Positions 1,999-51,945 of a DNA stretch of 64,000 bases are shown one piece after another (within the stretch, counting starts at the first letter, position 1; every line of letters starts with the position of its first letter). The stretch covers positions 94,463-158,462 of the IMG/VR virus record IMGVR_UViG_3300043395_003072. One strand, written 5' to 3'. Source of the DNA: a virus. The notes beneath the pieces are model-generated. The model did no database searches, had not been told where the DNA came from, and saw only the letters and a list, made by a program, of their open reading frames with translations. Both the position numbers and the translations under genes were made by a program.

Positions 1999-4900
1999 TT
2001 AATCCCTTATGGATTTTGTAATATAAGAATTAGAGATAGGCATTCTTCCATCTTGTATACCAAGAAATGCATTGCCTCCAGCGCCAACTACTTTTCTTGC
2101 AGACATCATCGCTTCTGAATAAGTTGGTGCTTCTCCATACATTCTGATTGAAGAGTTTCTAGTTACCATAGTCTCTCCTAAATTGATAGGTCTATCGTAA
2201 GTATTCATAGGTTCTTCAAATCTACTGGGTGCTACATTAGCATGCTCTTTATGGTTCATATTGTAAAGATGACGACCGCCTAGTGACTCTCTCGCTCTCA
2301 TATCAGAAAACTTATTTTCTGCCTCAAGAACTTCAGGAGAATTTTTTACTCCAACTAAGTATCCTGCTCCCATTGCAGCCGCAGCTAAATACCCACCACC
2401 TCTCTTTGAAATAATATCCATATTCATCGCTACAGTCTCTCTAAGGTTCCTTTGAGCATTCATAATTTCTTCAATTCTATCAACATTAATATCTCCGCTG
2501 AATCCACCTTCCATTGAAGAAGCTAAGAGACTCATTACTTGCCTCATTGAGAAAGCATCTCCAGATTCTAACACTTTATGCAGTCTTGAGTTTGATCCTA
2601 AGTTATGCAAGCCTCTTTCTTTTACAGTTCTTGCCATTACATCAAATGTTTCTCTTAAACTATCTCTGTTTAACTGAACGTTATTTAAAGATTCTCTTAG
2701 AGACTTGCTTGCTTCTCCTTCTGGAATATTTAGAAACTCAATATTTCCTAATGTAACGTTGCCTCCTGTTTCGTAAGCAGTTCCCTTAAAAATATTCTGA
2801 TCAAAGAAATTAAATATAGCTTCTCCACTACCAGAACTATAAGAGGTTTTTAGGGCTGATAAGAATTCCACACCAACGTCTGCTGCTACCTGTAAGTGCT
2901 TAGCTTTAATGATCAAAGATTCCTGAGCAACCGCAACTAAAGATGCGCCAGCTCTTAATCTATTGAAATAGGTTCTCATAGCGTCTTCTCCCCCTGCTCC
3001 ACCTTCATCTACTGCTGCTTGAGCTAAGCCCAACATACCTACTTTTATTTGTACGTCTAAGCCACCTACTGACTTAAGAATTCTTTCTTTTTCATATTGA
3101 TCTAATCTGAAATCCATTATGTTTAATGAGCTAGCCCCCATTCTTTCTCCGTAAACATCCATACCTCGACCTAGCTCTTTCATATTGATCAAGAATTCAG
3201 CACCAGTTCTATATAATCCGTGGAAAGACTCAGCGTTGTTTTTGAAACGCTCTCTCATGACATTAGTGGTGTCATGATAGACTTGATATATATCTGCATC
3301 GAAGTCACCAATTGAAAATCTGCTAAAGTCCATACGTGATTCATATTGTAAAAGTTTACCTTTAGCATCATACATTTGTTTGCCTTCTTTAAGTAGATCA
3401 GCTTTCACATCTATCTGAGGAAAATAAATTATACCTCCACCAACGTCTCCATATGTTTGATGGTAACTAAGTCCTCGCATTAACAGCTTATTTATTCCCT
3501 CCCTTACAGTCGTAGTTTGCTCTCCTTCAGCTGTAGTATATTTTATCTGCTTATCACCAAAAGTTTCGTCTAATTTTTTTAAATCTTCAAGTCGTGCAAT
3601 CCTCTTACTCTCTGTTGCTTCTTGTAAAGCCAAAAACAACGAGTTAACTCCACCAACTTTATTCCCAGTAGTTTCTATAAATTTCCTGCCTTCTTGACCT
3701 ACAGCAGCTCTTACAGCTGCATCTTCTTCTGGAGATATCTCGTATTGCCTATTTTTAAAGATTTGCCTTCCATCTATTACTACGGGTTTTCCAGCCTCAT
3801 CTAGCACTGGTGTTTTTCCTTTATTTACATCAGCCATCAACCTACTTAAGTCAGAATCATATAGTTCTTGCAATTGTGCTTTTATACTTGCAAATTCCGC
3901 CCTACTAGCTTCGTACTCTGCTTTAGATGGGAGCGTATCTAAGGATTCTGTAAGTTGTTGTAGTCTTGCTTCTTTCGCTTTCACAACATCATCATATTCT
4001 GTTTGTACAGCAGCTAGCTGAGCGTTTCTCCCCGCTATTAGCTCTTCACGTTTTGCTTTGTAAGCTGCTTTTGCTTGAGCTTGTTCCTCTTTTAAGCTTT
4101 CAAAATGAGCAAAAGCATCATTAACTTGTCCTCTTGCAGCTTCTATTTCTGGACTAGTCATTACTCTTTTAACACTTCCATCTTTATCAGTAATGTCTTT
4201 AAAACTTATTCCGCCTGACATTACTGAACTTAAACTTCTCCTTAGTTCATCTGCTTGTTCTCCTTGAAGATCTCCTCTCAAGACAAAGAATTCAATTACA
4301 TTATTGCTTTTTATTCCTGAGCTTTTGCTTCCTCTTTCAATACGCTTAGCCATGTTCTCTTTGAATGCATTTATTCTGTAACTTTTATTCCTAATAAAGT
4401 CTCCAACCGTAAAAATACCAGCTTCTTTTAGTCCTGCTTTATTATAAAGTCCGTAAAATGCTCCTAGTTGTTTTTCAAAACTTGTGCCTGATTTAAACCT
4501 CTGAGCAAAATCACCTATCGAAACAAGGTCGTCTGCTCTGGGCAAGTTCCTTCTTTCTAATTCAAATAAATCTTCTACTTGTTTATCTACAAAAGACAAT
4601 CTTGCTCGTTCTCTTGCTCTTCTTTCTAATTTTTCTAGCGCACGTTTCTCTTTTGTAGCAACATTACCTCTTCTTTCTTCACTAGCAGCTTCTCTTTGTT
4701 GAAGGTTTTCTTCTTCAACTCCTTCTAATGAACTTAATCTTTGCGCTGCTCTATTTTCAGCTCTAGTTAAATCTGCAACCTTAGCTGCCTTTGCTTCACT
4801 GTCTTCCTCTTTTGCTAAAGCTGCAAGTCTTGCTCTTATATCTCCTAGGCTGCGTCGTCTTTTTTCGATTTCCGTTTTTACTTTAGGCTTTATCTCTCTT

Positions 4901-7900
4901 GTTACTATTCCTGCTTCTCTTTTTTCAATGATAGCTTTTGTTTTAGCAATAAACTCTTTTTCTTTTTTTGTATAAGGAATAACTCTATCGTCGCGAGTTC
5001 TACTTAAAATATCATTTACTTCTCGAACAATGTTTTGATTTACTCTACCTTCTGTAAAAAAAGAAGATGCCAGTCTATATGCTTTGGCTATTTCATCTGA
5101 TAGTTGATATCTTGTTTTTCCTGAAGTGCCTTGTCCAAGTAAATTTAATCTTAACTCTGAGAAAGTTTTACTTAAAGTATCGATTGTTTCGCCTGCTTGC
5201 GTTTGTGTAGTTTCGGCCACTAACTGTCTGCTTGTTTCTATTACATTCTGAAATAAAGCCCCGGAGATAATAGCATTAGTAATCCCAATCCCCTTATACT
5301 CAATGTGTCCGTAACCTTCTATTTCTTGAAAAAAACGCCTACTTGAATCTTCTGGAGATATTTTCATTTCAAGACCAAGAATGCTTCTTAATGTACTTTC
5401 TACTTGTTCAAGATGCTCTCGATTAGTGTCGTATTCTTTTAATTTATTTTGAGCTTTTCTGACAGTTTTCAAAACATCTAAATCTTGAGAATCTGGACCT
5501 CCAGATAAAGTATATCTATCATTCTCTGGTCCATATCCAAAAATGTACTCACCATCACCATGCCTGACTATTGACTTAGTAAAAAGATCAAATACATCTT
5601 CTCCTCCTTTAAAAGTACCTGGAGATTCAGGGTTGAAAATAGGTTCTCTGGCTAAGCCCCTATGTTCCAAATACGATACTTTACCCTCTCCTTTTCCTAC
5701 ATAATAACCTGTAGGCTTTAAATACCCCTTATCTATTAAAAATTCTTCAAACGTATTTCTATATTTTGAATCCCCACTCAAATCTATATAATCAGTTATT
5801 GCTTGCTTGAATAAGGTTTCATTTCCCTTAAATACATCTTCAAAAACATTAAGTTTATTTTTTGTTTTTCGTAGTATAGGATCACCTTGTTGGATCTCGA
5901 ACTTCTTTAAAGTTAATCTTTGTTTAGCTGATTCAAAAGCTTGATTAACTTGATCAACATAACTGCTTCTAGTACTTTCTCCAATTAGTGGTTCAGAACC
6001 TATAATTCTATTTTCACCTAATAAAATATCAGTATCAGTTTTAACAACTTTTCCTTCTGAAGTTAAAAGCTTAGCATTTGAATCTCCATCACTATCAACT
6101 CCCAAGTGCCTTGCATAAGGTTGATTACTAACGCGTTCTAGCCTTAGGTTAGGGACTTGCTTCATTAACCTCGCTAATCTTTCGCGTTGCCTTGTGATAT
6201 AATCTGTTTGGGAATATTGAAGCTCAAGGATTCCACCCCTAATAAAATCTGGGATGTTTTCTCCAAAGCCACTTGAAAAAGGCATTCTAAAACGAATCGA
6301 ATCTAAAATATCTAGACCTTTATTATACCCCAGAGTAGAATCAGTTGGATTTACTCTATATTTTACAGCTGCTTGTTTAACTAAATTATTCACAATATTT
6401 CTTGCATTAATGCGCTTTTCATAAGCTTCTCTTTGTACCCTTTTAAGGTTATCTTTTGCTTGGTCTATTCTTTGTGATGCGCTAGCAAAACGACCCTGAA
6501 CACTTTCTACGACAGCTTTAGCGGCTTTTAGCTCTGTTTCAAATCGCTTAGCGTAACTACCTGTAGCGATATTCCTCTCTGCTCTAGTTCTTGTAGCTAC
6601 AAAGATACTTTCTCCAGCTTTAGTTTTTAAATCTGATTCTTGAATAGAATCCAAAAGTTTACTTTTCTTTTCTATTTGAAAATCTAAGTTCTTTTTTTGA
6701 GGATCTGTATCTTCTAATGCTTTAGCTTCAGTTCGCAAAGCTGCAATTTCTTCAGTCAGCTTAGTTCTTAAAGCTTCTGCATCGCTAGCAAGTCCAACTC
6801 TATAAGTCTCAGTTACAAGTTTAACCCCACCACTTCCATCATCTACATAACCTCCCATAATATCTGCTCTTCTTGCATGAAGAGTTTCTCTTGCTAATCT
6901 TAGTTCCCCATATATTCTTGCTTTTTCTTGATACACTGCAGTTACGTCTCTTATATAACTGTTTGTACCGTCCGTTCTCGACTCTATTTTGTATTCGAAG
7001 CTATTTTCAATTAGCTCACTCCCAACTACCTCATATCTTCCTGTTATTTTATTAAACTTTCTTTTTTCTCTAGTCCTCTGTCTATCTACAATTCTATTTC
7101 CTTCACTATCAGTTTCAAAAATAGTTTTTCCAAGGATTCCATGTAGCTCTGCTTTTCTCTCTTTTAGAGCTACAATTTGTTCGAAGCGACTAAGTTTTGC
7201 TGCTTCATATTCTTCAAAAGAATTAAATTTAAACTTATCTCCATATAAGGTTTTTAATTTTTCATACTTAAGTTGATTCTTTCTTCTCTTTATTTCTGCT
7301 TTTCCTTCATCTGTAAATTTAGTCTCATCATATTCGGGACCGCCTGAAATTAGCTTAATGAACGGATCGTCCTCTCCTTCTAAGAAATCATAGCGCATGA
7401 TCTCCATGCCAGGCATAAAGTGAGCAAAATAAATATTTGGGTTACGCTGTACTGTTGCAAAGATACCTTTCTTTTCTTTATCGTACATTCCAAAATAAAA
7501 GTTGCGCATAGCTTCTGTAGTTCTGCGTTCAATTTCTGCAGCTATTTCAACTTCGTTACCATTAGCAAACTTATCAAATCTTAGTTGACGAGCTGTAGCT
7601 TCTTTGAAAGTAGTCATACTATCTAAAAAGCCTTGGCTATCTTGAAACAGTACATAGCCTCTTTTCTGGTTGAATGCATCAAGCAAACCCTGTCTTATAG
7701 CTGATTGCTCCCCTCCACCTAGCGTTGGAAGTAAAGAAGAACTAGCTGCATCTTTTCCAAAAACAATTCCTTGCCCCATATAAGTCCCTGATCCACTAAT
7801 CCTCCCAGTCAATGCATCTCTAAGAGCATATCCAGAAACCTTTGCAATCGAACCTCTAGCTGCTTTGAATCCGCTTAAAGCGTATCCAAATTTCACATCG

Positions 7901-10900
7901 TTTCCACTACTATCAAACATTCCTGAAATAGATGCATTTAAGTCTGTAATGTATCGTGTGAATTCATTTTCTATATTTATATTGTCTCCGCTTTTTCCTA
8001 CTACGAATCCTTCCAGATTTTCTAAAGTTGAAGCTCCTGGAAGATATATTTTACTTTTTCCACCTGTAATATCTAATATTCTTTTTAGATCCGTTTGATT
8101 AGTAAAAAGCTCTTCCAAATTTAAAATAGATCCAGATGCTCCACCCCTATTTATCAGGAAGTTTTTAACACCTGCTTCATCAGCTCCAAGCCTTATTAAC
8201 TCTTGAGCTTCAGCTCTACTTAGGGATTTTAAGCTTGAGATACCTTTTATTTGATTTTCAAAATCAACATTTCCCATTTGACTTAAACTAAAACTAGTTA
8301 ATTTCATTCCAAGTAAAGCTTCGGGTCTTCCACCAATATTATCTTGGCGAGCCAAAAATGATCCAAGGAACCTAGTAGCACTAGACTCATCTAGCCCAAA
8401 ATTCATTCTCAATGATGAATACAAGTAATTCATAAAGCGCGGTTCTATCTTTGCAAGATTTCTTGCGTAGTCTGTATGTACGCCACCGCTAGAAACATAA
8501 TGCGCAGTAAAAGTAATACCTCTTTTAATCTCTTGCATAGTTTTATTTGAGTTAAGCCTTGCTCCGCTAGCAAGTCTTTGCTGCACGATAGTTTCAAACT
8601 CGCTAGTAGTTAAAAACTTACCAGACCTATCATAAGCCCCTCCGAGTATTCTCCCCACATCAGCCTCAGTTAAACCGTGAGTTTCTGCAAGATTTAAAAC
8701 AGCTTGTACTGAAGCACCCATATATGCTTTCTTACGACCTAAAGCTCCTGCAGAATCAAGACTGGTGTACGCTTCTCCAGTCATTGAATTGATTGCTTTT
8801 AAATAAGCATCGTCGCTTCCGATTAATTTCTTCATCTCAGCTTCATAAAGATTTCTACCGACTCCAAACAACTCAAGAGACCCAGCTATTTGCGAGCTGA
8901 TAAATTGAGGTCCTTTCTTAAGTTGTTCAGTTGTAGTTAACAATGTTTGATTATGTTTCACATTCAAGTCTGTAAAGAAGCTAGATATTTCACTATCACT
9001 CAAACCAGCCTGCTTTAACTTTTGTTGCATTTGTGCTTCTGTAATACCAAAAGTAGTATCTTTTAAGATTGTAGAGAACATCTTAGTTCTATCTAACCTT
9101 TGGACCATCTCACCGCTTATATGTGATCTGGTTCGACCACTCTCAAAAGAGCTTTCAACAATCCCTAATGTGAAATTCATAATTCCTTTTTTTCTAGAGA
9201 TAGCAGCTACATCTTCATCGCTAAGCCCTAAAATAGCTCGACCTTGCCTATCTCCAAATTCTTTAAAGAATTGGTCAACGCTATAGTCCCCCCCCTCTCC
9301 AATTACCAAGAAGGGGTTCTTGGTGCCAACTCTGCTTTTCAAAGTACTAAATAATTTACTTTCAGTTAATCCATCATCATATACAGTCTGATTAATTGAA
9401 GATTTTACTTCTAGTGTCCCTCCAAAGTAAGACATACCTTCACCAAGACCTAAGCCTTGACTTACATTACTACTTAACATTATTGCTCCAAGATTTACTC
9501 CATGAACTCTCGAGGCTGTCTTATTTATACCAATCAAATCTCCACCACTACCTACGCTTGCTATTGTTCTATTCTTACCAAACCTATAACTTTTATCTAC
9601 TCCCACTACTCCTGCACCTAATTCATAACGTCCAACCATCTGAAAGTCACGTGCAGTTTGCTCGTTGATAACTTCATCTATTCTCCCATAAGGAGCCATT
9701 ACATTAAATGCAGATTCATTTGCTCTTGCCATTGTTACATCAGTAAAAGAAAGCGTTTTATTTCTATTAAATGGATCTTCAACTCTTGTTATTATTGGAT
9801 ACCCTGTTCCTCTCACATCTTCTGGGTACATTTGCATTAAGCGCTTAACTAGGTTTTGTTGCATTTCTCCAGGAAAATCTTCTAACCCTGCTATGAGAAA
9901 TCTAGCACTTTGAACGCTTCTTGCAAACTGCATATTTTCTTGAAATTGCTTACTTATTAAAGATACTCCTCTTTCATTTTGTATCTCACTAAAATTTGTG
10001 AACATTCCTCTTGGAGCATCAAGTCCAGGCATTCTTAAGAATTCGTAAAAGTTTTTAATGTCTCGCCTAGACATATTATTTAAACTACCAAAATCACCAA
10101 ACCCCTTAGATACTCTTTGAAAAATATACTCTTCATAAGAGTAAGAACCCTTCCCTGAGTAAAGATTCCCCCCTCTTGCGGAGGTTAAATCTATATTATT
10201 AAATATTTCAGGAGCATTTAATACTCTTTGTGGAGCAATATATCTTGTGCTTAAATTCTCTGTAGCTCTAACAACTACCATTCCATTTCTATCTCTAGAT
10301 AAATAAAGTGGAACTTTTACTGAAGAAGCTTCGTTACCTACTCTTAAATATAAATTTTTAATTCCTGTCTTGTCAGCATTATCTTCGAATCCAAGCAAAC
10401 TTACATTATCTGCTCCACCTGCCATTTTTACATAATTGGCATATCTTGTACGAACTTCATTAACGTCAGCCCCCATATCCTTCAACGTTGCAGCCAACCT
10501 TGAGTCTCCTAACCCTGAAAACTCTTCCATCTTAACTTGTCTCTCTAAGTTAAGAATCGTAGAGCTATCTCTTCCAGATAGAGTGCTTTTTATTTTATCT
10601 AATTGCGCAAACTTTCTTCTAAATTTAGAAAGAAACTTATCGTTGCTAGCAATGTAAGAATTATAAGAGCTTTCAAGTCTATCAATTTGTTCGCTTGTTA
10701 GATTTCCAGTATTATATCCTGATTTTATGATTTCTTTTAAATCACTTGATCCTAATTCTTTTAAAGAATCATAAAGGCTGCCTAGTAGCGCTCTTTTATC
10801 TTCTATTGAAGCATCTGAACTTTCCAATACAGTTCTTATTTGAAGATCGTTTTTAAAATCAGCTAGAGCTTGTGTTTTTGCTGCGTTTTGCAATTCTTGC

Positions 10901-11139
10901 AAAGCCATTGAATCTCTTCTTAAAGAAGAACCTACTCTATTAAATTCACCAGAACCCGTACTGCGGAAAGATCCTATTTTAGAATTTACTTCTTGAACAA
11001 TATTAGAGCCTTGAAAACTTTTATATCCTGCATACCCAAGCGCCCCAACTGTTAAAGCTTCTTTACCTATAGAAGACATCTTTTCTTTTACTTCGCTATT
11101 ATCTTTATTAAATAAGCTTCTTAAAAGTTCACTCGCCAT
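1999..11139 (-). CDS. Giant virion protein, candidate virion-packaged two-barrel RNA polymerase
   Basis: 3046 aa. Contains GDFDADIYQVY (DxDxD Mg-binding loop, nt 3292-3306), an upstream VQRNP motif and a K..STILKD segment resembling the two-lysine barrel. It lies in the tail module after the tape-measure-like gene. Confidence 0.6.
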   Translation of the reverse strand: MASELLRSLFNKDNSEVKEKMSSIGKEALTVGALGYAGYKSFQGSNIVQEVNSKIGSFRSTGSGEFNRVGSSLRRDSMALQELQNAAKTQALADFKNDLQIRTVLESSDASIEDKRALLGSLYDSLKELGSSDLKEIIKSGYNTGNLTSEQIDRLESSYNSYIASNDKFLSKFRRKFAQLDKIKSTLSGRDSSTILNLERQVKMEEFSGLGDSRLAATLKDMGADVNEVRTRYANYVKMAGGADNVSLLGFEDNADKTGIKNLYLRVGNEASSVKVPLYLSRDRNGMVVVRATENLSTRYIAPQRVLNAPEIFNNIDLTSARGGNLYSGKGSYSYEEYIFQRVSKGFGDFGSLNNMSRRDIKNFYEFLRMPGLDAPRGMFTNFSEIQNERGVSLISKQFQENMQFARSVQSARFLIAGLEDFPGEMQQNLVKRLMQMYPEDVRGTGYPIITRVEDPFNRNKTLSFTDVTMARANESAFNVMAPYGRIDEVINEQTARDFQMVGRYELGAGVVGVDKSYRFGKNRTIASVGSGGDLIGINKTASRVHGVNLGAIMLSSNVSQGLGLGEGMSYFGGTLEVKSSINQTVYDDGLTESKLFSTLKSRVGTKNPFLVIGEGGDYSVDQFFKEFGDRQGRAILGLSDEDVAAISRKKGIMNFTLGIVESSFESGRTRSHISGEMVQRLDRTKMFSTILKDTTFGITEAQMQQKLKQAGLSDSEISSFFTDLNVKHNQTLLTTTEQLKKGPQFISSQIAGSLELFGVGRNLYEAEMKKLIGSDDAYLKAINSMTGEAYTSLDSAGALGRKKAYMGASVQAVLNLAETHGLTEADVGRILGGAYDRSGKFLTTSEFETIVQQRLASGARLNSNKTMQEIKRGITFTAHYVSSGGVHTDYARNLAKIEPRFMNYLYSSLRMNFGLDESSATRFLGSFLARQDNIGGRPEALLGMKLTSFSLSQMGNVDFENQIKGISSLKSLSRAEAQELIRLGADEAGVKNFLINRGGASGSILNLEELFTNQTDLKRILDITGGKSKIYLPGASTLENLEGFVVGKSGDNINIENEFTRYITDLNASISGMFDSSGNDVKFGYALSGFKAARGSIAKVSGYALRDALTGRISGSGTYMGQGIVFGKDAASSSLLPTLGGGEQSAIRQGLLDAFNQKRGYVLFQDSQGFLDSMTTFKEATARQLRFDKFANGNEVEIAAEIERRTTEAMRNFYFGMYDKEKKGIFATVQRNPNIYFAHFMPGMEIMRYDFLEGEDDPFIKLISGGPEYDETKFTDEGKAEIKRRKNQLKYEKLKTLYGDKFKFNSFEEYEAAKLSRFEQIVALKERKAELHGILGKTIFETDSEGNRIVDRQRTREKRKFNKITGRYEVVGSELIENSFEYKIESRTDGTNSYIRDVTAVYQEKARIYGELRLARETLHARRADIMGGYVDDGSGGVKLVTETYRVGLASDAEALRTKLTEEIAALRTEAKALEDTDPQKKNLDFQIEKKSKLLDSIQESDLKTKAGESIFVATRTRAERNIATGSYAKRFETELKAAKAVVESVQGRFASASQRIDQAKDNLKRVQREAYEKRINARNIVNNLVKQAAVKYRVNPTDSTLGYNKGLDILDSIRFRMPFSSGFGENIPDFIRGGILELQYSQTDYITRQRERLARLMKQVPNLRLERVSNQPYARHLGVDSDGDSNAKLLTSEGKVVKTDTDILLGENRIIGSEPLIGESTRSSYVDQVNQAFESAKQRLTLKKFEIQQGDPILRKTKNKLNVFEDVFKGNETLFKQAITDYIDLSGDSKYRNTFEEFLIDKGYLKPTGYYVGKGEGKVSYLEHRGLAREPIFNPESPGTFKGGEDVFDLFTKSIVRHGDGEYIFGYGPENDRYTLSGGPDSQDLDVLKTVRKAQNKLKEYDTNREHLEQVESTLRSILGLEMKISPEDSSRRFFQEIEGYGHIEYKGIGITNAIISGALFQNVIETSRQLVAETTQTQAGETIDTLSKTFSELRLNLLGQGTSGKTRYQLSDEIAKAYRLASSFFTEGRVNQNIVREVNDILSRTRDDRVIPYTKKEKEFIAKTKAIIEKREAGIVTREIKPKVKTEIEKRRRSLGDIRARLAALAKEEDSEAKAAKVADLTRAENRAAQRLSSLEGVEEENLQQREAASEERRGNVATKEKRALEKLERRARERARLSFVDKQVEDLFELERRNLPRADDLVSIGDFAQRFKSGTSFEKQLGAFYGLYNKAGLKEAGIFTVGDFIRNKSYRINAFKENMAKRIERGSKSSGIKSNNVIEFFVLRGDLQGEQADELRRSLSSVMSGGISFKDITDKDGSVKRVMTSPEIEAARGQVNDAFAHFESLKEEQAQAKAAYKAKREELIAGRNAQLAAVQTEYDDVVKAKEARLQQLTESLDTLPSKAEYEASRAEFASIKAQLQELYDSDLSRLMADVNKGKTPVLDEAGKPVVIDGRQIFKNRQYEISPEEDAAVRAAVGQEGRKFIETTGNKVGGVNSLFLALQEATESKRIARLEDLKKLDETFGDKQIKYTTAEGEQTTTVREGINKLLMRGLSYHQTYGDVGGGIIYFPQIDVKADLLKEGKQMYDAKGKLLQYESRMDFSRFSIGDFDADIYQVYHDTTNVMRERFKNNAESFHGLYRTGAEFLINMKELGRGMDVYGERMGASSLNIMDFRLDQYEKERILKSVGGLDVQIKVGMLGLAQAAVDEGGAGGEDAMRTYFNRLRAGASLVAVAQESLIIKAKHLQVAADVGVEFLSALKTSYSSGSGEAIFNFFDQNIFKGTAYETGGNVTLGNIEFLNIPEGEASKSLRESLNNVQLNRDSLRETFDVMARTVKERGLHNLGSNSRLHKVLESGDAFSMRQVMSLLASSMEGGFSGDINVDRIEEIMNAQRNLRETVAMNMDIISKRGGGYLAAAAMGAGYLVGVKNSPEVLEAENKFSDMRARESLGGRHLYNMNHKEHANVAPSRFEEPMNTYDRPINLGETMVTRNSSIRMYGEAPTYSEAMMSARKVVGAGGNAFLGIQDGRMPISNSYITKSIRD

Positions 11140-11140: not shown

Positions 11141-14100
11141 TTATCCTCCTAGTGCTCTTGCAATTAACATTTGCATTTCAGGCATTCTATCATCAGTGTA
11201 ATGTATCTCTGCTCTAGATTGTTCTCCAGTACTAATTCTATTTAATACAATTTTACTTGAATCTAAATCTGATACATAATTGCTATTTCTAATTAAAGCA
11301 TTACGAGTCGCATTTCTATGCATACCACCAGGCTGATACATAAAAAGATCAGCCCCTTCAAGATAAGGTTTTCTTGATACGTTTCTCACTTGAGATTCCC
11401 ACATGTCGTAATCGTGTATTTCTTGACCTGAATTATCTACATATTTGACTTTAATATCTTCTATATCCACATCCTTATGCCAGCCTATCCAATCTACACT
11501 AGGCATTGGTTTATTTCTAAAATACTCTTCCATAAGGTACATTTTCTCTCTCATATACTCTTCATCAATTACTGCCTTATCACTAGATAATAAAGAAACA
11601 TTCTCACCAGAATCTATCCTTGACCATATATTCTGATATAAATGCTTTTGATCTTCAGGTACTAGCTCAAGGATTCTTTCTCTTTCATCTTTTTGAGCAT
11701 TAGCAAAAGCATCAAAAAATCTCTTATCTGCATTTGGTAACGCCAAATAAACAGAAAGTGCATCTCCATTAGGATTCACTCCTGTTCTAGTTCTAGCTGC
11801 TAAACTTATATATCTATTTCTATCTTTTTGGTTTTCAGCTTGCTCTGCTAATTGCATGTATTTCATAAATTGAAGTTTATCAAAATGCTCATTGATTTCT
11901 TCTTTTTTCGTAACATGCATAGGTTTGCTATCAACGCCCATTATTCTCGCTGCTGAATACATTGCTGGCCTGAACCAGTCCCTTATAGGAGAATCCCAGA
12001 AAGGGTTAGCTGTACCGTAAATTCTTTCTGTTTCATAGACTTCTATAGCATCTCTAGTGTGTCCTAGAAGTTTAGAAGCAGGTCTAAAACCACCAGGAAC
12101 TAAATACTCTGCAGCAGATAATCCAGTACGTATTGCACTAGTGCCTTTTTCGTACATATATTGAGTTATATCGGAAGCTATAGGGATTCTAATAGCGTTA
12201 GGGTGTGGCTCATAGTCTCTTGTAGCAGCAAGTCTTTTTTGATGGTTCTCTACAATGTTATCGAGCATTTTAGATTCATGCTCTGTTAAAATTCCAGCAG
12301 CTTTTCTTTCGTAAAGCTCTTGTTGCATTTTAATTGTTTGTCTGCTTTGCGGAGCTACATCAGCTAATATCTTATACTTATGAATTAATGGATAGTCTTC
12401 AGGGTCTAGTCCAGCTACATCAGGATTTAATGCTTCGTACCCTTTACCAGGTAATCTTGCTGAGCCATTAGCTATTGCTCTATAAGGGTCTCCTCGTTTT
12501 AACTTCTCCGGGATATAAGAAGGCATTGAGTTTATTAATGGGTTATAAGCCTCTATTTCTGCTCTTGGTCTTGGGAATAAACGTCTAATTGGCTCTGACA
12601 TAAAACCAAAGCCACCAAGTTCTTTTTCCCAATAATCTCCAATAGAAGAATCCATTGCAGTAGAAGTTGCATACACCGGACTCATCGTTCCTAATACTTC
12701 TCTACCAGTAAAAACTTTTTGTATTATATTTTTTGTATAACCAGTCAAACCTTCTATTTCTCTAAATGCATACTGAATTCTACCAAGTGCAGGCATTCCT
12801 TGATACGGAGAAACTGGTGATCCTGGAGGTATCTCTCCTAACTCAGGAGAAGAACCGTAGCCTTTAATATAAGCTTGCTCCACTTCTCCACTCTCTTGAT
12901 TCAATCTAAAGAGCTCATCTTCATGCATCAGTTTAGGTGGTTTTAATATCTGCCCAATTGTTGATGATAGTAAAGGCCCAAGCACTGGCATATCTTCAAA
13001 AGCTGCACCTGTCATTGGGTAGGGTCTATCTTGATAGTTCTTTTCCTCTAAGTAATAGGTGAAGTTCTTAAGCATGAATCTTGTTATTGGGTTAAAGTTC
13101 TCATAATCTTCCCCCCAAACAGATTTCTCATCAGACTTAGTCATTAACATCTTATAAGCGTGGGGTCTAAAATATGAAGTCTCCCCGCCTTCATAAGGAG
13201 TACCTCCAGCTTCCCACCATCGACCTTTCTTTATCTCTACAAGCTTCTCTCCTTCATATACTGCTTTAAGCTCATCAGGATCCTCCATCATTCCAAAGAA
13301 TGCGCCAGTCATCATTTGGTGTATAAAGGCAGTACCTAATACTAATGCTCCAAATCTTTTAACAATTGGAGCTGCGCTTAATGATTCTGCTACTTCTTCA
13401 TAAGTTTTATTTCTAACAAAACTTCCATCTTTAGCTCTTACATCTTGCTGAACTCCCCCTAGCTTGATATCTACTTCACCTTCAAGGGTAGCTCCAAAAA
13501 AAGAATGCACCATTTCTGCACCAAATATTTCAGTGCGCCTCATCATATTATTAATGAATCCAGATCCTGTTGAATATCTATTATTAATTTCTACGATTTT
13601 ATTTAATAAAGATTTATTTAAATCATTATCTTTATAATACCTTGTGTGAACTTCAGATCTTGTTGCGTGTGTTAATTTATAGTTCGTATCAAGTATTATT
13701 GATTTCAACCTTCCGCTATCTTGCTCATTTAACATTTCCCTTAAAAGCACTTCATTGTCTGAAAAGAAGCTTCTTAACTTTGATCTGGATTCTTTATCTA
13801 GATTATCTAAACTAACATTCTTTATTATAGAATCTAGCGAAGACTGATACCTTTCTAGAAGTTCTGTTTTTATCTGACCTTTCTGTAGTCTTTCTGCAAT
13901 TGGATTATACTTTAAGAATTCTTCTGTATGTTTATCTGCAATTTTCCCAAAACTAATAGCATTAAAAAGTGTTCGCATTTGGATATCTTGTCTTGATCCA
14001 GGCAAAGTCACGGATCCGACGATCCCAAGCCTATTTTCTATTGCTCCATAAACTCCTCTAAAAGCATTATCAAAAGAAGATGAAATTCCTTGCTTTGGTA

Positions 14101-15577
14101 CAGGTTTTCCTTCGGCTCTAGCTTGTTCTCTTAAAAGAAAGTCTTGGCCATAGTTGGTATAAGATAAAGCAGCTGCTCCAAGTCCTAAAAATAATCCAGT
14201 CGTAGTTTCTGTAAATCCAGGGAATAATCCTTCTATTCCCCTCCTGATATAAGACAATCCTGTATATTTTCCAATATAAGAACGCGCTATATCTAAATTT
14301 ACTGCTGTTGTTGCAATACCTTCTTTAATACCTTCATTAAATCCAGGAAGCAACATCTGTACTGCAAATGCTGCAGCCCCTAACTTGGCTGTTCCTTTTA
14401 AATCTTTAGTTGCATTGAAATACATTCCAGCAAGACCAAGGCTTATTCCTGTAGAAGCAACAAGATTTCCAGCAACTCCAAACTTTCTTCTATAGTGATC
14501 TACCGTTTCGAGCCCCATATAAACTGCACCTATTTTAGATGCTTTTAATCCTAACGAAAGAAACTGTTTATAGAATGGTCCTGGCTCTGTTTTTAAAGAT
14601 AAACCCGTATACTCACTAAACCTACCTAGCAGTTTTCCAACTACAGGCATTTGATTAAGCGTAGCATCTATTAATCTATTGTAACGTTGTATACCCGCAG
14701 TCAGTTGGGCTGCAGGTATAGCGGTTCTTCTTTTTAAATCACTTAAACTCTCGAGTTTTCCTCTCACTGATGGAACTAAAGCTAACCTGCTAGAATCTTC
14801 TGTGACCGAATCCACATACATGTTTGCATAGTTAATATCTTTTACATCCAAGTTTTGTAATATAGCTTGAGTTACAGGATTTAATTTAGTACGTGAGCTT
14901 GATGCTTCTAATGCATCAAGAGGTTCGTATGCATAACCTCTGAGCTGTACTGCTACATCATTAGATATTAAAGTTGGCTTTTTTGTTTTAGATGGTTCTA
15001 ACTTTATTTTCTTTTCAATGACTTTTCCTGAATCATCTTCAATTTTTTCAACTGTTTCATCTAGTTCTTCAAAAAATAAACTCCCCCTACCTCTTGCCTC
15101 TATGTCTTGCTCATAAACAAGCCTGTATCTATCTGTATTTATTCTATGACTTATTTGAGCATAAGCTTCATCTCCAATAGTTGCTCTTAAAATATTTTGA
15201 CTATCTTTGTTATTCTTTATAAATCTTGATTCAAATACATATCTCCCAACTTCTTTATTTGGATCTTGTAAAGAAGCAGCTTTTTCTAATTCTAATGCTG
15301 CTGGACTTAATCCTATTGAAGCATACTCTGGAATTCTTAAAGTGTTTAATAGCCCACCAAGCTTTTCATTAAGAATATTTCTTACTTGTTTTTGACCTAT
15401 ATCATATACACTATATTCGCTTCCTTGCGAATAAGCTTTAGAAGCTAAATAGCGCCCACCAAAGTACAAACCACCATAAGGCAACAAGGACATTCCAGCT
15501 TCTACTAAAGGGTGCATTTCTGGCTCTTGTTGAAGTGCAGAGTAGTATACCCCGCCTTGTCCTTGCTGAGTATACAT
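11141..15577 (-). CDS. Tape-measure-like / ejected virion protein
   Basis: 1478 aa, helical-looking, with several Gly/Ala-rich hydrophobic segments. It follows the tube and chaperone-like genes. Confidence 0.5.
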   Translation of the reverse strand: MYTQQGQGGVYYSALQQEPEMHPLVEAGMSLLPYGGLYFGGRYLASKAYSQGSEYSVYDIGQKQVRNILNEKLGGLLNTLRIPEYASIGLSPAALELEKAASLQDPNKEVGRYVFESRFIKNNKDSQNILRATIGDEAYAQISHRINTDRYRLVYEQDIEARGRGSLFFEELDETVEKIEDDSGKVIEKKIKLEPSKTKKPTLISNDVAVQLRGYAYEPLDALEASSSRTKLNPVTQAILQNLDVKDINYANMYVDSVTEDSSRLALVPSVRGKLESLSDLKRRTAIPAAQLTAGIQRYNRLIDATLNQMPVVGKLLGRFSEYTGLSLKTEPGPFYKQFLSLGLKASKIGAVYMGLETVDHYRRKFGVAGNLVASTGISLGLAGMYFNATKDLKGTAKLGAAAFAVQMLLPGFNEGIKEGIATTAVNLDIARSYIGKYTGLSYIRRGIEGLFPGFTETTTGLFLGLGAAALSYTNYGQDFLLREQARAEGKPVPKQGISSSFDNAFRGVYGAIENRLGIVGSVTLPGSRQDIQMRTLFNAISFGKIADKHTEEFLKYNPIAERLQKGQIKTELLERYQSSLDSIIKNVSLDNLDKESRSKLRSFFSDNEVLLREMLNEQDSGRLKSIILDTNYKLTHATRSEVHTRYYKDNDLNKSLLNKIVEINNRYSTGSGFINNMMRRTEIFGAEMVHSFFGATLEGEVDIKLGGVQQDVRAKDGSFVRNKTYEEVAESLSAAPIVKRFGALVLGTAFIHQMMTGAFFGMMEDPDELKAVYEGEKLVEIKKGRWWEAGGTPYEGGETSYFRPHAYKMLMTKSDEKSVWGEDYENFNPITRFMLKNFTYYLEEKNYQDRPYPMTGAAFEDMPVLGPLLSSTIGQILKPPKLMHEDELFRLNQESGEVEQAYIKGYGSSPELGEIPPGSPVSPYQGMPALGRIQYAFREIEGLTGYTKNIIQKVFTGREVLGTMSPVYATSTAMDSSIGDYWEKELGGFGFMSEPIRRLFPRPRAEIEAYNPLINSMPSYIPEKLKRGDPYRAIANGSARLPGKGYEALNPDVAGLDPEDYPLIHKYKILADVAPQSRQTIKMQQELYERKAAGILTEHESKMLDNIVENHQKRLAATRDYEPHPNAIRIPIASDITQYMYEKGTSAIRTGLSAAEYLVPGGFRPASKLLGHTRDAIEVYETERIYGTANPFWDSPIRDWFRPAMYSAARIMGVDSKPMHVTKKEEINEHFDKLQFMKYMQLAEQAENQKDRNRYISLAARTRTGVNPNGDALSVYLALPNADKRFFDAFANAQKDERERILELVPEDQKHLYQNIWSRIDSGENVSLLSSDKAVIDEEYMREKMYLMEEYFRNKPMPSVDWIGWHKDVDIEDIKVKYVDNSGQEIHDYDMWESQVRNVSRKPYLEGADLFMYQPGGMHRNATRNALIRNSNYVSDLDSSKIVLNRISTGEQSRAEIHYTDDRMPEMQMLIARALGG

Positions 15578-45086: not shown

Positions 45087-48000
45087 TTACATCCTATGAT
45101 GGCCAATTGGAGAGTTAAATTGATTACGCAATGCGCTTTGCTGCATAGCCGCCATTGTTTGTTTTCTTTTAAAAGATTCAATTTCTCTTATTTTAGCTTC
45201 TGTAGACTTTTGATTCATTTCTGACTCATATACAGAATCAGAAGTAATCAACTTAGCCATCTCTACATTGTTTTGATTTACATTTCCAACCTTCATCTTC
45301 TCAGTTAATCTATCGGAACCTCGAGTCCTCATAAGTCTGCCGATCTCATACTTTTGCTGATCAAGTACACTTGTTATAGAATTGCTAGGTTGTCCGTAAG
45401 TCTCCAGATTCATTGCTGAGAATTTAGGATCGTCTGCAAATGGCTTCTCAAGACTACCTATCTTCTTACCTAGAATCTCTAATTCTTCTTTATTTATATA
45501 GCCTTGTCTTTGAGCTTTGTTCATTTCTGCAAACATGCTCATCATATTACTACTATTAACTACTTTAGCGGGATCATTTAACATGTTAAAGGTTACTGTT
45601 TGTCCACTAACTTTTGTTATCTCTTTATAAGCTTGGAAATAAGCCTCTGACCACATTCCCTTCTTAGCTTCATAAGCTTGCTCTTCAGCTATTTCAAAAG
45701 CTTTTTGGTCATATATAGGCTGCTTACCTTTACCCTTATAAGGAAGATAAGCAGCAGCGCCTCTCTTTAATAATTCTAAGTTCAAGTTTTTACCATCTAC
45801 ATAAACAACACCTACTTGACGACCATAAGTCATATCTCCCGGCTCAGTTACTACTTTCACTTCCTTAGCGTTGGCTAATAATTCTTGAGCTATCTGCTTC
45901 GCAGCTTCTGCATATGGCTGAGCAGCTCTATATTCGTGAGCAGTTTCTGGAGCATCTATACCTGCTAAGCGGAACTTAGCTTGACCAGTAGTACCCATAA
46001 ATTTATTCAATGGATCAATAATTCCACCATCTCTATTCACAGTAATAGTGTCTGCATCTTCTACTGTGATTTGTGTAGGATCAATACTATACTCTATTAA
46101 GTTTTTACCTTTAAGAGATGAATACCTTTCTGGATTAACTGGATTTCCCATAGTTACTAGGCTTGGTTGTTCTATAGAGAATCCATATTGTTTTCTAAAA
46201 GCAGAGTCTATGTGTTTCTTAAAGAAAAGCCCTATATCTCCTTCTTCAGAAAAGTGCCTTAACATAAACTGTCTATTAATATAATTCTGACGCTCTCTCC
46301 TTAAATTATGATCTTCAAGTACAGAGGAAGAATAACCCATACCTTGGTAAGGGGAACCGAAGTCTGTATTCAGTTTACGCATGAAAGCAGCCACACCAGA
46401 TTCTGACATACCTTCTATAGTGTTTCCATATTTTATATTTAAGTCTGCTTTATAGGCTTCTTCGCTTCCGTACTCTTGAGCCTTAACATTCAAGAATTGC
46501 TCATAAGTAGGAGTTAGCAAACTTTTACTAGCTTGTCTTTCTGGAGTAGCTGCCCCAAAACCAGCTAAACCTAAAACAAGCCCGACATAACCTCTCTTTG
46601 GAATACTACTTATAATCTCTCCTAAGTTTCTAATACTTGGCGCTTCGGGCATTGAAATAGCTTGCGCTGGATTAGTTCTTGGTACTAGTGGCACTTCTGC
46701 TTGCGCTATAACAGTAGGACTTGTTGTCGGCGTTACGGTTGGTATTGTTTCTGGTACTGGAGCTTCTGGTTCACCAAAGCTAACTCTTATTGCATTTTTA
46801 AGAAAATCACTTAAAGAACGACCTCTCCTCTGTCTTTGATTTAATTTCGCGCCTCTAGTTATTCTTCCACTTCCAGTTTTTAAAACTACTGCTTGAGCTT
46901 TAATAGTAGCGTCAAACTCTGCTTGATAAGTTCCAGCAGCACCAAATCTTCTTTCAAATACTTCAATCTGTTTACTTGCAGATTCTGAATACTCGCTACC
47001 TATCCTGCTTAGCTCGCCTCGGTTCTCTGGAAGCAACTCTCCGCTACTACCAAAAAGCCCTGAGATTCTTGGTATTATCTCGTCAAGTATTCTTCCCCTA
47101 TCAGCGCTGGCATAATCATCTAACCCTCTCATATTTTCAATAAACTTATCTAAAGTAAATATCTTAGTACTTTGAGAAGCGGCTATAGGTGTTGCTTCTG
47201 TAACTGCAAGCCCACCAACTTCTCTTGCTTGCTGTACTACCCCCAATCCAGGCTTATATTCTTTTACATTAAAGAATCCACGCTCTGCTAAATCTACTAA
47301 GTCACGACCAGCTCGTTGCCTATACAAGACATCTATTAAAGAATCATCTGAACCTGAAACTCGTTTAGTTAAAGCTTGAAAGGCTCCTGCATATTGTTGC
47401 GCTTCGTAGTAAGCCCCTCGACCTTGAGTCGCCTCATCTATCAACCTTCTCCCAACTTCTGTATCTTTGCTTACTTCGTCTATGGCCTGCAAGTGCTTTA
47501 AACCTTCAGATAATACAATCTTTTCAGAAATAGCTGTATCTGCAAAGCCTGCGTGAAGCTCTTTTGTGTCTGTTAAGTATTTAAACGCATCTTTTTCACC
47601 ACGTCCCACAGCTGCTGCATACGAATAAAGTCTAGCCTGAACTTCTACACCAAGCGCTGCTGGCTTAGAAACATTAGTAATCAATCCTTGTTTAATAAGC
47701 ATAGACTGTTGAGTTCTGGCTATATCTAATACGTCTCTTACATCGCCTTCTTTTGTATGCTTAATTAAAGCTTCATACATCCCAGACCAATCACCACTCT
47801 TTTGGGCCAATGCTCTTGCTCTTGAAAACTCTACTCCAGTAACGAAGAATGGTTTACCTGTACTAACTGAAATACCTCCAGTAGTTCCGAAGAATGGGTT
47901 CTTTGTTTGAAGCTTCTCAGTTCTGCCTGCATTCAGTGCTTCTATTTCTTTTTCATAGCGCCCATACTGATAGCCTCTAACAAAGTCTGACTCATCAATA

Positions 48001-49034
48001 GCTTCTAAGTTTTTACTTGCTCTATCTGCATTTAAAGCTTCAAATGCTTCTTTTGAGTAAGCATCTATATGCCCGCCAAACTCACCTGATTCGAAGCTAG
48101 CGTTAGCAATCCAAGTAACCTTACCTCTTAATAACTTAGGTAACTCATCCTGCAATATCTTTCTGATACTAAACCCCTGTTTTAATTCTAAGTTTTCTCC
48201 TTGTTTTCCAAAATAAGTTTCTGAATCATAACCCGCTGCTTCTACTTGAGCTATAAGTTGTTGCTTACTAACGTTTTGTAAATTTATAGCATTAAATAAT
48301 GCTCTTTTATGAATTACATCTTGGCTCAAAGCTTCACCACTACTATCTACTCCTACTTTCGCTTTTATAAGCTTAGCTTCATCTTCTACCATTTGGACAG
48401 CTTGGAACTTATCAGTACGAATCATCTCGTCTTCAATAGCTGATTTTAACACCGGATCTTTTCTAATAGCTTCTACCAGCTTGTCAGTATTCCCCCCTGC
48501 ATAACTTCCATAAACTGTAGGATTCCTTAAAGCCATTTGTCTTAAAGTATCACTATATTTTATTTCTCTAAAAGTAGCATCCCCGAGATTACTATCTAAA
48601 ACCGAACCTCTAGATTTATAAGCAGCCTCACCTAACTTAGGTTCTACACCTAACAAAGCATTAGACGTCGGTACAAACATTGTAGTTTTAGCAGATTGAT
48701 AATCGTGCACAGCAATCTGTGTAATACTATCTCTACCCAACCTACCTGTAGTTTCAATATCTAATAATACTGAATTCTTCAATATCTCTGCTGCATTACC
48801 AAAAGCAGAACCAGATATTGGAGTTCTAGTATTAGTTTTAGGATCAAATACAGTTACAGATTGTACTTCTCTACCTTGTCTTAGATACAAATTATATACA
48901 GTATCATCTGCAATTTCTTTTGGAGCTAATCTAAAAGTCTCAGTAACCGTTTGCCCATTTGGCAACTTAACTACATATTCTATTTCTTTATACGTATCTC
49001 CAGTATTTATAAAAGTAAAATGCTTATTCTTCAT
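45087..49034 (-). CDS. Fusion of a DEDDh exonuclease-like domain and a thermonuclease (SNase) domain
   Basis: 1315 aa. N-terminal LLDIETTG / ANASFE / LHAGFAD; C-terminal VEDADTI, RLAGIDAPE and YGRQVGVVYVDGKNLNLELLKRG (SNase signature). Confidence 0.75.
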   Translation of the reverse strand: MKNKHFTFINTGDTYKEIEYVVKLPNGQTVTETFRLAPKEIADDTVYNLYLRQGREVQSVTVFDPKTNTRTPISGSAFGNAAEILKNSVLLDIETTGRLGRDSITQIAVHDYQSAKTTMFVPTSNALLGVEPKLGEAAYKSRGSVLDSNLGDATFREIKYSDTLRQMALRNPTVYGSYAGGNTDKLVEAIRKDPVLKSAIEDEMIRTDKFQAVQMVEDEAKLIKAKVGVDSSGEALSQDVIHKRALFNAINLQNVSKQQLIAQVEAAGYDSETYFGKQGENLELKQGFSIRKILQDELPKLLRGKVTWIANASFESGEFGGHIDAYSKEAFEALNADRASKNLEAIDESDFVRGYQYGRYEKEIEALNAGRTEKLQTKNPFFGTTGGISVSTGKPFFVTGVEFSRARALAQKSGDWSGMYEALIKHTKEGDVRDVLDIARTQQSMLIKQGLITNVSKPAALGVEVQARLYSYAAAVGRGEKDAFKYLTDTKELHAGFADTAISEKIVLSEGLKHLQAIDEVSKDTEVGRRLIDEATQGRGAYYEAQQYAGAFQALTKRVSGSDDSLIDVLYRQRAGRDLVDLAERGFFNVKEYKPGLGVVQQAREVGGLAVTEATPIAASQSTKIFTLDKFIENMRGLDDYASADRGRILDEIIPRISGLFGSSGELLPENRGELSRIGSEYSESASKQIEVFERRFGAAGTYQAEFDATIKAQAVVLKTGSGRITRGAKLNQRQRRGRSLSDFLKNAIRVSFGEPEAPVPETIPTVTPTTSPTVIAQAEVPLVPRTNPAQAISMPEAPSIRNLGEIISSIPKRGYVGLVLGLAGFGAATPERQASKSLLTPTYEQFLNVKAQEYGSEEAYKADLNIKYGNTIEGMSESGVAAFMRKLNTDFGSPYQGMGYSSSVLEDHNLRRERQNYINRQFMLRHFSEEGDIGLFFKKHIDSAFRKQYGFSIEQPSLVTMGNPVNPERYSSLKGKNLIEYSIDPTQITVEDADTITVNRDGGIIDPLNKFMGTTGQAKFRLAGIDAPETAHEYRAAQPYAEAAKQIAQELLANAKEVKVVTEPGDMTYGRQVGVVYVDGKNLNLELLKRGAAAYLPYKGKGKQPIYDQKAFEIAEEQAYEAKKGMWSEAYFQAYKEITKVSGQTVTFNMLNDPAKVVNSSNMMSMFAEMNKAQRQGYINKEELEILGKKIGSLEKPFADDPKFSAMNLETYGQPSNSITSVLDQQKYEIGRLMRTRGSDRLTEKMKVGNVNQNNVEMAKLITSDSVYESEMNQKSTEAKIREIESFKRKQTMAAMQQSALRNQFNSPIGHHRM

Positions 49035-49731: not shown

Positions 49732-49824
49732 ATATAACTCCTGAAAATATATAATAAAAAATTTAAAATAAATAATAACATAAATCAATAATTAAATTTC
49801 TAAAAAGACCCCGGGGGTGAATTG

Positions 49825-49924
49825 AAAATATTTGGGAGTAAGAGAGCGCGAGAAAGTATAAAAAATATTTGGGAAAAAGCTGTTACCTATGACGGCAATT
49901 AGAAAAATATAAAAAATATTTGGG
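49825..49924. repeat. Three direct repeats AAAATATTTGGG in the divergent intergenic junction
   Basis: Exact copies at 49825-49836, 49862-49873 and 49913-49924. Copies 2 and 3 extend upstream to AGAAA..TATAAAAAATATTTGGG. Confidence 0.75.
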
Positions 49925-50021
49925 GGTGTTATTTTTATAGTGGTTGGCACGATCCAAAAGATCCGTGCCCACCCGGGGGGAGTAAGCCCCTGGCCGCTGT
50001 GGCCTATAGCTTGAACACACC

Positions 50022-50387
50022 GTGGGTATGCCCCACAGAAAGTTCTGTGATCACATCATGATCAAGAACAAGCTCGAGAGTATTAACAACAATCCCTGGA
50101 ACTTCCGCAAGGTCTTCAAGATCGAGTGGTGTAACCGCAATGAGGGCGTCTCTGGTTGGGCTTCGGCCCCTGCCAACATCCCTGACTTCAACGGCAGCAC
50201 CGACGACCATGAGGACTTGGGTATCATCCTCGCCCTCCAGCGCCACTATGGCACTGCGCAGGTCGACGGGATGTATGTCTCGCCTATGACGGCCCGTTGG
50301 GCCGAGGCGTGCACGGTGGGTTTCGTGGTGGATGGGTGGCGCTACGGGCAGGCCTTCGGGCTCGCCTGGCGCGTCCGCGTCCGCTGA
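50022..50387 (+). CDS. Hypothetical protein (first plus-strand gene; start uncertain)
   Basis: GC3-rich codon bias like its neighbours; ends at the start of the repeated spacer. Confidence 0.6.
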   Translation: MGMPHRKFCDHIMIKNKLESINNNPWNFRKVFKIEWCNRNEGVSGWASAPANIPDFNGSTDDHEDLGIILALQRHYGTAQVDGMYVSPMTARWAEACTVGFVVDGWRYGQAFGLAWRVRVR

Positions 50388-50498
50388 GTCGCTGTTGTCT
50401 GATCTCTAGCCGCTTAGGCGGCTCAAAAATAAAGTCCTAGGGTCACCATACCTAGGCCGAAACGCCGTGAGGCGTCCGGGGAAAGCCCCGCTGATGAG
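50381..50498 (+). repeat. ~115-bp intergenic repeat, copy 1 (copy 2 at 51758-51872)
   Basis: Near-identical run CCGCTGAGTCG.TGTTGTCTG...CTAGCCGCTTAGGCGGCTCAAAAATAAAGTCCTAGG...GCTGATGAG. Confidence 0.9.
50434..50498 (+). ncRNA. Hammerhead ribozyme HH1 (type II-like permutation)
   Basis: Hairpin CCUAGG/CCUAGG, then CC-GAAA (50459), stem III CGCC-GUGA-GGCG, UC (predicted cut after 50476), stem I CGGGG-AAAG-CCCCG, CUGAUGA-G. Confidence 0.88.
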
Positions 50499-50620
50499 AA
50501 TTCACTTGTCAGAATGCCCTTTGCAACAGGACACACACGACCATCATAGCAGCTATCAAGCTGTGTCGTGCAGTGTATGAGACTGGGCTCACCTCCCTCC
50601 CGTGCAAAAAGGAGAATCCA

Positions 50621-50881: not shown

Positions 50882-50886
50882 GAGCA

Positions 50887-51764: not shown

Positions 51765-51808
51765 GTCGTTGTTGTCTGGTCTAGCCGCTTAGGCGGCTCA
51801 AAAATAAA

Positions 51809-51872: not shown

Positions 51873-51945
51873 CACCCGCACATAAACGTTACAGGCTGCG
51901 TTTACTGTGAACCTTCCAAGCCTAAAGAGGAGGAGTTCCTCAAAA

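Follow-up and report, generated by a model that had tools for sequence, protein, structure and literature searches.

The question raised by this locus is whether P0001, a 3,046-amino-acid (aa) protein encoded on the minus strand at positions 1999..11139 of a 64-kb stretch of viral DNA (hereafter, the window), is an RNA polymerase (RNAP) and, if so, of what kind. The window is the final part of the 158,462-bp virus record IMGVR_UViG_3300043395_003072. The data described below indicate that P0001 is probably a single-chain, two-barrel RNAP of the cellular type, whose gene occupies the tape-measure slot in an uncultured phage with a contractile tail, of the 0305phi8-36 type, and that it is probably carried in the virion. 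The core of this interpretation, i.e. one RNAP chain with two barrels, a giant insertion in the catalytic one and a gene within the tail module, is supported by sequence conservation and by three independent fold tests. In comparison with the cellular RNAP core, P0001 is predicted to be very divergent. An earlier reading of the sequence (the original prediction) had proposed a probably virion-packaged RNAP, with crAss-like phage enzymes as the comparison. Its view of P0001 as a single-chain RNAP homologue with a huge insertion in the DxDxD-bearing barrel is supported, but the crAss-like enzymes are not the best comparison.

Catalytic motifs and their conservation

The motifs on which the original prediction was founded are situated where it placed them: VQRNP at aa 1230-1234 (nucleotides (nt) 7438-7452), GDFDAD at aa 2611-2616, with DFDAD at aa 2612-2616 (nt 3292-3306), VGGLDV at aa 2691 and IIKAKH at aa 2743. 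The distance between R-x-P and DFDAD, given as about 1370 codons, was measured as 1,380 residues. From the composition of P0001, a DxDxD motif is expected by chance 0.54 times, and D[FYW]DxD was obtained in 76 of 2,000 shuffled sequences; a second acidic motif, DSDGD, is indeed present at aa 1682. A lone DxDxD in a protein of this size is, therefore, unremarkable and by itself proves nothing; the signal lies in conservation across homologues. The DSDGD at aa 1682, which is nearer to R-x-P, was considered as the true catalytic loop and was rejected, as it is absent from all homologues, including one that is 64% identical.

A word-indexed search identified eight full-length relatives (30-64% identity); when the last 500 aa were used as the query of an exhaustive profile search, 108 cluster representatives were recovered, of which 73 had E ≤ 1e-10. 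The family consists of 108 clusters at 50% identity, all of which are metagenomic, and a literature search found no paper describing it. Conservation was determined from an alignment of the 65 family members of at least 1,600 aa, the mean identity of which is about 20%. It is apparent that both the R and the P of R-x-P are retained in all 65 members, and the three Asp residues in 65, 64 and 65 of them, respectively. K-x-F is likewise found in 65 of 65, and the full K-x-F-x4-K is essentially invariant. The original prediction had made its case depend on the conservation of DFDAD, and the Asp triad has been kept. At position four of the motif, the more distant members have G (DFDGD, DYDGD, DWDGD and others), and the subgroup to which P0001 belongs has A.

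The spacing between R-x-P and the first Asp ranges from 110 to 1,493 aa in the 65 members, with a median of 144, and at least two sublineages, with motifs of the QRNP and FRNP types, contain large inserts. These observations establish the insertion as a real variable feature at one fixed site. The insert of P0001 had been described as charged coiled coil. Judged by composition, this applies to long, charged, Gly/Pro-poor stretches (approximately aa 1450-1600, 2000-2200 and 2300-2400), but Gly/Pro-rich, globular-looking stretches (approximately aa 1600-1700 and 1800-1950) alternate with them. In P0003, a 46%-identical homologue, a helix-hairpin-helix DNA-binding motif (Pfam HHH_3, E value 8e-15) lies inside the insertion, at aa 1475-1525; P0001 has no such match. 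At least some of the inserts therefore hold a nucleic-acid-binding element.

Searches with whole P0001 against Pfam and PHROGs produced no match, and 42 family members searched singly against Pfam gave only scattered single matches, among them RNA_pol_Rpb1_4 in one member (E value 0.053), which is under the cut-off. Sequence profile searches of the PDB, with alignments of 9 and 42 sequences, returned coiled-coil or designed-repeat noise only. Comparison of the family profile (hhalign) with residues 1-1200 of P23-45 gp96 and with the window's second giant ORF was not significant in either case. There was no tblastn match of the C-terminal part of P0001 in 50,697 phage records, and an ESM Atlas shape search and an Atlas feature search of the insert gave no usable result.

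Predicted fold and domain layout

Owing to its insert, P0001 is too long to be folded across the barrel; a short-insert homologue and pieces of P0001 itself were folded instead. Residues 615-1814 of P0018, a natural short-insert homologue of 1,814 aa, were modelled with AlphaFold from 48 aligned sequences, with a predicted local distance difference test score (pLDDT) of 79 and a predicted template modelling score (pTM) of 0.78. The model contains, in order, a strand ending in R-x-P (617-624), a strand at 632-640, a helical excursion of about 75 aa where the insertion sits (649-724), followed by three strands, the Asp loop (767-771) and a last strand (772-777). Because the excursion falls between barrel strands, the insertion is placed between strands of the catalytic barrel. 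A double-psi β-barrel (DPBB), without which the original prediction would have been given up, is thus what the model predicts. The Asp loop is followed by long conserved helices, in the region where a bridge helix and trigger loop would be expected, and alignments to the largest RNAP subunits run about 260 residues beyond it, to model residue ~1036 (about aa 2880 of P0001).

For the front part of the protein, aa 100-1262 of P0001 were modelled directly (57 sequences; pLDDT 89.5, pTM 0.85). The nine best matches among 48,161 chains were all second-largest RNAP subunits: the β subunit of the plastid-encoded polymerase PEP (score 10.3), African swine fever virus RPB2 (9.3), Pol I A135 (9.1), vaccinia Rpo132 (9.0), the PhiKZ β-like protein (8.8), Xanthomonas β (8.8), AR9 (8.4), Pol III (8.3) and Pol IV (7.8). 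The alignments comprise 250 to 445 residues and fall within model residues ~123-1018. With neither model did Foldseek find a PDB match at E ≤ 0.001; the list for the C-terminal (P0018) model was noise, and the weak rows for the aa 100-1262 model were mostly β subunits. From the fold matches, therefore, the single chain appears to be β-like in front and β'-like behind.

That P0001 is a two-barrel enzyme of some other activity, such as a QDE-1-like RNA-dependent RNA polymerase, a primase-like enzyme or a PolD-like DNA polymerase, was considered very unlikely. The 50 best matches of the aa 100-1262 model comprised only multisubunit β subunits, with neither QDE-1 nor the virion RNAP gp66 of phi14:2, a crAss-like phage, among them. 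No sequence relation links P0001 to gp66 (PDB 6VR4) or to Neurospora QDE-1, from which it also differs in virion type and gene neighbourhood.

The two separated parts of the putative catalytic barrel of P0001 were also docked as two chains, aa 1105-1260 and aa 2560-2890, with 63 aligned sequences each. The interface score ipSAE was 0.66 (0.63, 0.70 and 0.66 in the individual runs), as against 0.00 in all three controls. Of 80 solved complexes, 58 attained a mark of 0.66, as did 2 of 110 mismatched pairs, although these counts hold only roughly here, as custom alignments were used. At least 68% of contacts were common to the runs, and partner pLDDT was at least 67. Confident contacts were formed by strands 1116-1130 and 1226-1250 with 2568-2575 and 2605-2625, the DFDAD motif being in the last of these. 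This result supports, but does not prove, closure of the two barrel halves into one domain. Together with the P0018 model, it bears out, at the level of structure prediction, the placement of the insertion inside the DxDxD-bearing barrel. Both hallmarks of the two-barrel RNAP superfamily are thus predicted for P0001: a β'-type DPBB with a DxDxD loop after [RK]-x-P (barrel A) and a β-type module with conserved basic residues facing the active site (barrel B).

On this basis, P0001 can be divided into the following segments, all on the minus strand. The N-terminal region (aa 1-221; 10477..11139) is mostly helical where modelled (aa 100-183) and matched no known fold. It is followed by the putative β-like module (aa 222-1117; 7789..10476), defined as the range aligning to second-largest RNAP subunits. 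Within this module, a cluster of β-strands at aa ~545-700 (9040..9507) is read, from predicted secondary structure and conservation, as the second barrel (DPBB-B). It contains the family-invariant K686-x-F688-x4-K693 (nt 9061-9084), of which K686 and K693 may be equivalent to β K1065 and K1073, and alignments of the P0018 model to single-chain RNAPs (QDE-1, gp62 and gp96) begin at this cluster.

The N-terminal half of the catalytic barrel (DPBB-A; aa 1112-1257; 7369..7806) comprises the strand SGSGTYMGQGIVFG and a strand ending in the invariant R1232-N-P1234 (nt 7438-7446). The insertion (aa 1258-2562, i.e. 1,305 aa; 3454..7368) has charged helical and Gly/Pro-rich stretches and is poorly conserved. 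The C-terminal half of DPBB-A (aa 2563-2625; 3265..3453) consists of the GGGIIYFP strand and the putative metal-binding loop D2612-F-D2614-A-D2616, and, jointly with aa 1112-1257, would form the β'-like catalytic barrel, which the insertion would exit and re-enter between two strands. Past the barrel, a β'-like helical region (aa 2626-2880; 2500..3264) carries the conserved K2684-E2685, VGGLDV and QESLIIKAKH (aa 2739-2748); VGGLDV and IIKAKH, which the original prediction had compared with G.I.N and VD.AK, are tentative counterparts of named β' motifs at most. The C-terminal region (aa 2881-3046; 2002..2499) begins with a Gly/Ala-rich hydrophobic stretch (aa 2914-2932), the counterpart of which was modelled at low confidence in the homologue, and ends in a tail of about 110 aa that, the catalytic motifs aside, is better conserved across the family than any other stretch.

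The tail-module locus and comparison with known systems

It was of interest to establish what kind of phage encodes P0001, and where. The portal protein is closest to those of Bacillus phage 0305phi8-36, Acinetobacter ME3 and Moorella MTATph1 (31-37% identity). The genes run in the order sheath-like gene, two genes of the 0305phi8-36 tube family (phrog_9206; a tube-like gene and its paralogue), two chaperone-sized genes, a gp145 homologue, P0001 and a gp147-type gene with a lysin profile. The gp145 homologue, P0115 (1,478 aa; 11141..15577, minus strand), which is context and not polymerase, matches the 0305phi8-36 virion protein gp145 in colinear segments (BLASTP, 6e-24). The P0001 gene starts 1 nt past the stop of P0115 and ends 1 nt before the start of the lysin-like gene. 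The order is kept in three metagenomic relatives, in which the gp145-like gene encodes 1,459-1,478 aa and the polymerase-like gene 1,814-3,046 aa. It also matches that of 0305phi8-36, where the slot between gp145 and gp147 is occupied by gp146. By synteny, then, P0001 is encoded at the tape-measure locus of the tail module.

In 0305phi8-36, gp146 is annotated as 'hypothetical tape measure protein' and has been seen in virions by mass spectrometry. Like P0001, it follows the chaperonins and gp145 and precedes the giant lysin gp147; it has 2,537 aa, and the similarity of its extreme C-terminus to that of P0001 is weak and not significant. By eye, gp146 (L002:6624-14237) contains a DIETTG motif typical of DnaQ-like exonucleases, with no Pfam match. 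The tape-measure slot may hold different nucleic-acid enzymes in different lineages.

Position within the tail module and the gp146 slot suggest that P0001 is packaged in the virion. It could instead be an active RNAP that is made late and used in the cell, e.g. for late or very late genes, its place in the tail operon being due to chance. In keeping with this, packaging is argued from position, the folded core is far too large for the lumen of the tail tube, and phages with two RNAPs need not package either of them, as found in a survey (PMC10770324). On the other hand, the 1-nt gaps to both neighbours and the gene order kept across relatives are not expected of a chance location, and the same slot encodes a virion protein in 0305phi8-36. 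An enzyme that first appears together with the tail genes would, moreover, come too late to drive the cycle unless carried over, and N4 and P23-45 show that giant RNAPs can be ejected (PMC10770324). A non-packaged enzyme is, on balance, unlikely.

The virion-carried two-barrel RNAP proposed here has its closest known counterpart in gp96 of Thermus phage P23-45, a 5,002-aa tape measure that starts with a two-barrel RNAP, with DFDGD at residues 779-783 (Chaban et al. 2024, PMC10770324; PDB 8H2M, 8H2N). The gp96 enzyme is present in the virion and reads the pre-early genes, including that for a second, non-virion two-barrel RNAP; the latter reads early and middle genes, and the host enzyme late genes. 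Enzymes of the gp96 type are also found in P74-26, G20c and TSP4 (PMC10770324). This tape-measure-fused protein is a closer comparison than the crAss-like RNAPs of the original prediction, and the N-terminal 1,100 aa of P0001 resemble multisubunit β subunits.

The likeness to gp96 consists of a two-barrel RNAP in the tape-measure slot, paired with a second RNAP candidate. No sequence relation between the two proteins was found by hhalign, and they belong to different sequence families. P23-45 has a long non-contractile tail, in contrast to the sheath and tube genes of 0305phi8-36 type found in the window. In gp96, an N-terminal polymerase unit of 1,200 aa is followed by a tape measure of about 3,800 aa that contains metallopeptidase and membrane domains. 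In P0001, by contrast, the polymerase appears to span both ends of the protein, with the variable part inside barrel A; only about 165 aa follow the polymerase-like region, and no peptidase domain was found in the Pfam search. The β-like module of P0001 aligns better and over a longer range to multisubunit β than to gp96.

In coliphage N4, the virion RNAP gp50 is a polymerase within a giant virion protein of about 3,500 aa, which is ejected to transcribe early genes. The analogy with P0001 is functional only, as N4 is a podovirus and gp50 has a T7-like right-hand fold, rather than two barrels. Multisubunit RNAPs (β/β', Rpb2/Rpb1 and the split non-virion RNAPs of PhiKZ and AR9) consist of two or more chains, whereas P0001 is one chain for which no partner subunits were identified, and no Pfam RNA_pol domain is significant in its family. 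They also differ from the P0001 family in the R-x-P to DxDxD spacing, which is about 35 aa in the multisubunit enzymes. To be counted in a published genome survey, [RK]xP had to lie 20-100 aa from DxDxD (PMC10770324), a range into which no member of the P0001 family fits. The supplement of that paper lists neither 0305phi8-36-type phages nor tape measures.

Several points weigh against the assignment of P0001 as a virion-carried two-barrel RNAP. The searches described above of Pfam, PHROGs and PDB profiles, and with hhalign against gp96 and the second ORF, did not connect it with any RNAP family at the sequence level. A model of the full barrel was obtained for a homologue only, the evidence for P0001 being the two-chain docking. 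P0001 has Ala in place of the universal Gly of NADFDGD, and the close homologue P0004 (aa ~2340) reads DFVAD, with the middle Asp lost, which could be a sequencing error or an inactivated copy. Proteomic support for a place in the virion exists only for 0305phi8-36 gp146, a slot-mate with no detectable homology, in which neither DFDGD nor the R-x-P pair is present and for which hhalign gave no significant profile match to the family. As for tape-measure character, the insert is only partly helical by composition, and no tape-measure Pfam domain reached the cut-off in the 42 family members searched, the TMP_3 match being at E value 0.009 (16 bits, compared with a cut-off of 41). Finally, no 19-residue stretch of P0001 reaches a Kyte-Doolittle mean of 1.3, for which reason the Gly/Ala-rich stretches are not called membrane helices here. 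Several Gly/Ala-rich hydrophobic stretches are present in P0115 as well.

Some of these points could be accommodated if P0001 were a tape-measure or ejection protein that has kept an exapted, catalytically dead RNAP-like scaffold, with the conserved residues serving DNA binding or assembly. Such a protein would be at home in the tape-measure slot, and its length-variable middle and highly conserved C-terminal tail would be as in tape measures. The Ala in the metal loop, the DFVAD homologue and a positional counterpart with no polymerase motif would also be in accord with lost catalysis. But the retention of the three Asp residues, R-x-P and K-x-F-x4-K in 64-65 of 65 members, despite the low mean identity, is an active-site pattern, and most members almost lack the insert, which would make them poor rulers. 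The dead scaffold is accordingly regarded as decidedly unlikely, and an RNAP as the better reading of P0001.

The second polymerase candidate and a proposed course of infection

From position 1 to 49.8 kb, the window carries minus-strand late genes and is AT-rich (~35% G+C); from ~50 kb there is a plus-strand block of 55-68% G+C. Within that block lies a second giant ORF of 2,138 aa (54952-61368, plus strand), with DSDGD at aa 958, which is a candidate YonO-like RNAP. A single-chain YonO-like enzyme has been noted in 0305phi8-36 (Iyer et al. 2021, PMC7824862); it fits this ORF, and not P0001. Profile comparison (hhalign) of the second ORF with the P0001 family showed no similarity. A complete 161.8-kb IMG/VR relative (G001) has a member of the P0001 family, 42% identical in its C-terminal part, as well as a 2,179-aa ORF (locus L010) with DNDGD at aa 929 that is colinear with the window's second ORF (E values 8e-8 and 5e-7). 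The stretch of G001 encoding it is GC-richer than its surroundings (46% vs ~35%). Because G001 holds both genes, the enzyme pair has been kept in at least one relative. A 137-kb IMG/VR relative, 87% complete, gave no match to the second ORF, which, given the divergence, is not evidence of absence, and a tblastn search of 50,697 phage records with this ORF gave none either. As judged from motifs, the orthologue and the profile comparison, the proposal that the phage encodes two dissimilar single-chain RNAPs has support, the second being a candidate; the assignment of the synthesised enzyme to late genes, also part of the original prediction, is a guess.

The following course of events can be envisaged. 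Made late, like the tail itself, P0001 would travel in the virion and leave it through the tail, either together with the DNA or before it. Once ejected, it would start rifampicin-independent transcription of the first genes, probably those of the GC-rich block encoding the YonO-like candidate. A further role of the insertion may be to determine length or to form a conduit. One version of this idea, which is rather unlikely, is that the insertion is a tail-length ruler or conduit threaded through the barrel. Stretched in the tail, it would hold the active-site halves up to ~100-200 nm apart, with the enzyme off; upon ejection the insert would collapse, the barrel would close and transcription would start. 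If so, activation of the polymerase would be mechanically coupled to infection, and tail length would be tuned, with the enzyme left as it is, by expansions that recurred at a single barrel loop in at least two sublineages.

The strategy of placing a virion RNAP in the tape-measure slot has been published so far only for one Thermus phage group, and the P0001 family, which is separate and large, suggests that tail-delivered polymerases are recurrent rather than a curiosity. As the family escapes both Pfam and the published motif filter, surveys of phage transcription undercount such enzymes. A single loop of the barrel takes inserts of ~75 to ~1,450 aa, which puts DPBB folding to an extreme natural test, and the natural short-insert members are suited to biochemistry. 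With a candidate YonO-like second enzyme and a ribozyme-punctuated GC-rich block, the phage looks like a self-contained two-polymerase cascade and would be worth isolating.

Some further features of the window were observed. The rise in G+C content at positions 50001-64000, from ~35% to 55-68%, occurs abruptly inside a single phage genome, and many spurious overlapping ORFs are found there on both strands. Just before it, at 49820-49924 (plus strand), are three tandem copies of an AT-rich motif, TATAAAAAATATTTGGG, two exact and one degenerate. In the whole 158-kb genome there are exactly three copies of its 12-mer core, AAAATATTTGGG; all of them fall within 100 bp (49825-49924), in the AT-rich gap that separates the late minus-strand block from the GC-rich plus-strand block, and face the latter. 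This 12-mer is a candidate start signal for the first-acting polymerase, but could equally be a host-type promoter. Within the late block, just upstream of the terminase, a 1,315-aa protein (45087-49034, minus strand) contains a staphylococcal-nuclease domain at aa 1020-1130 (Pfam SNase, E value 6e-22).

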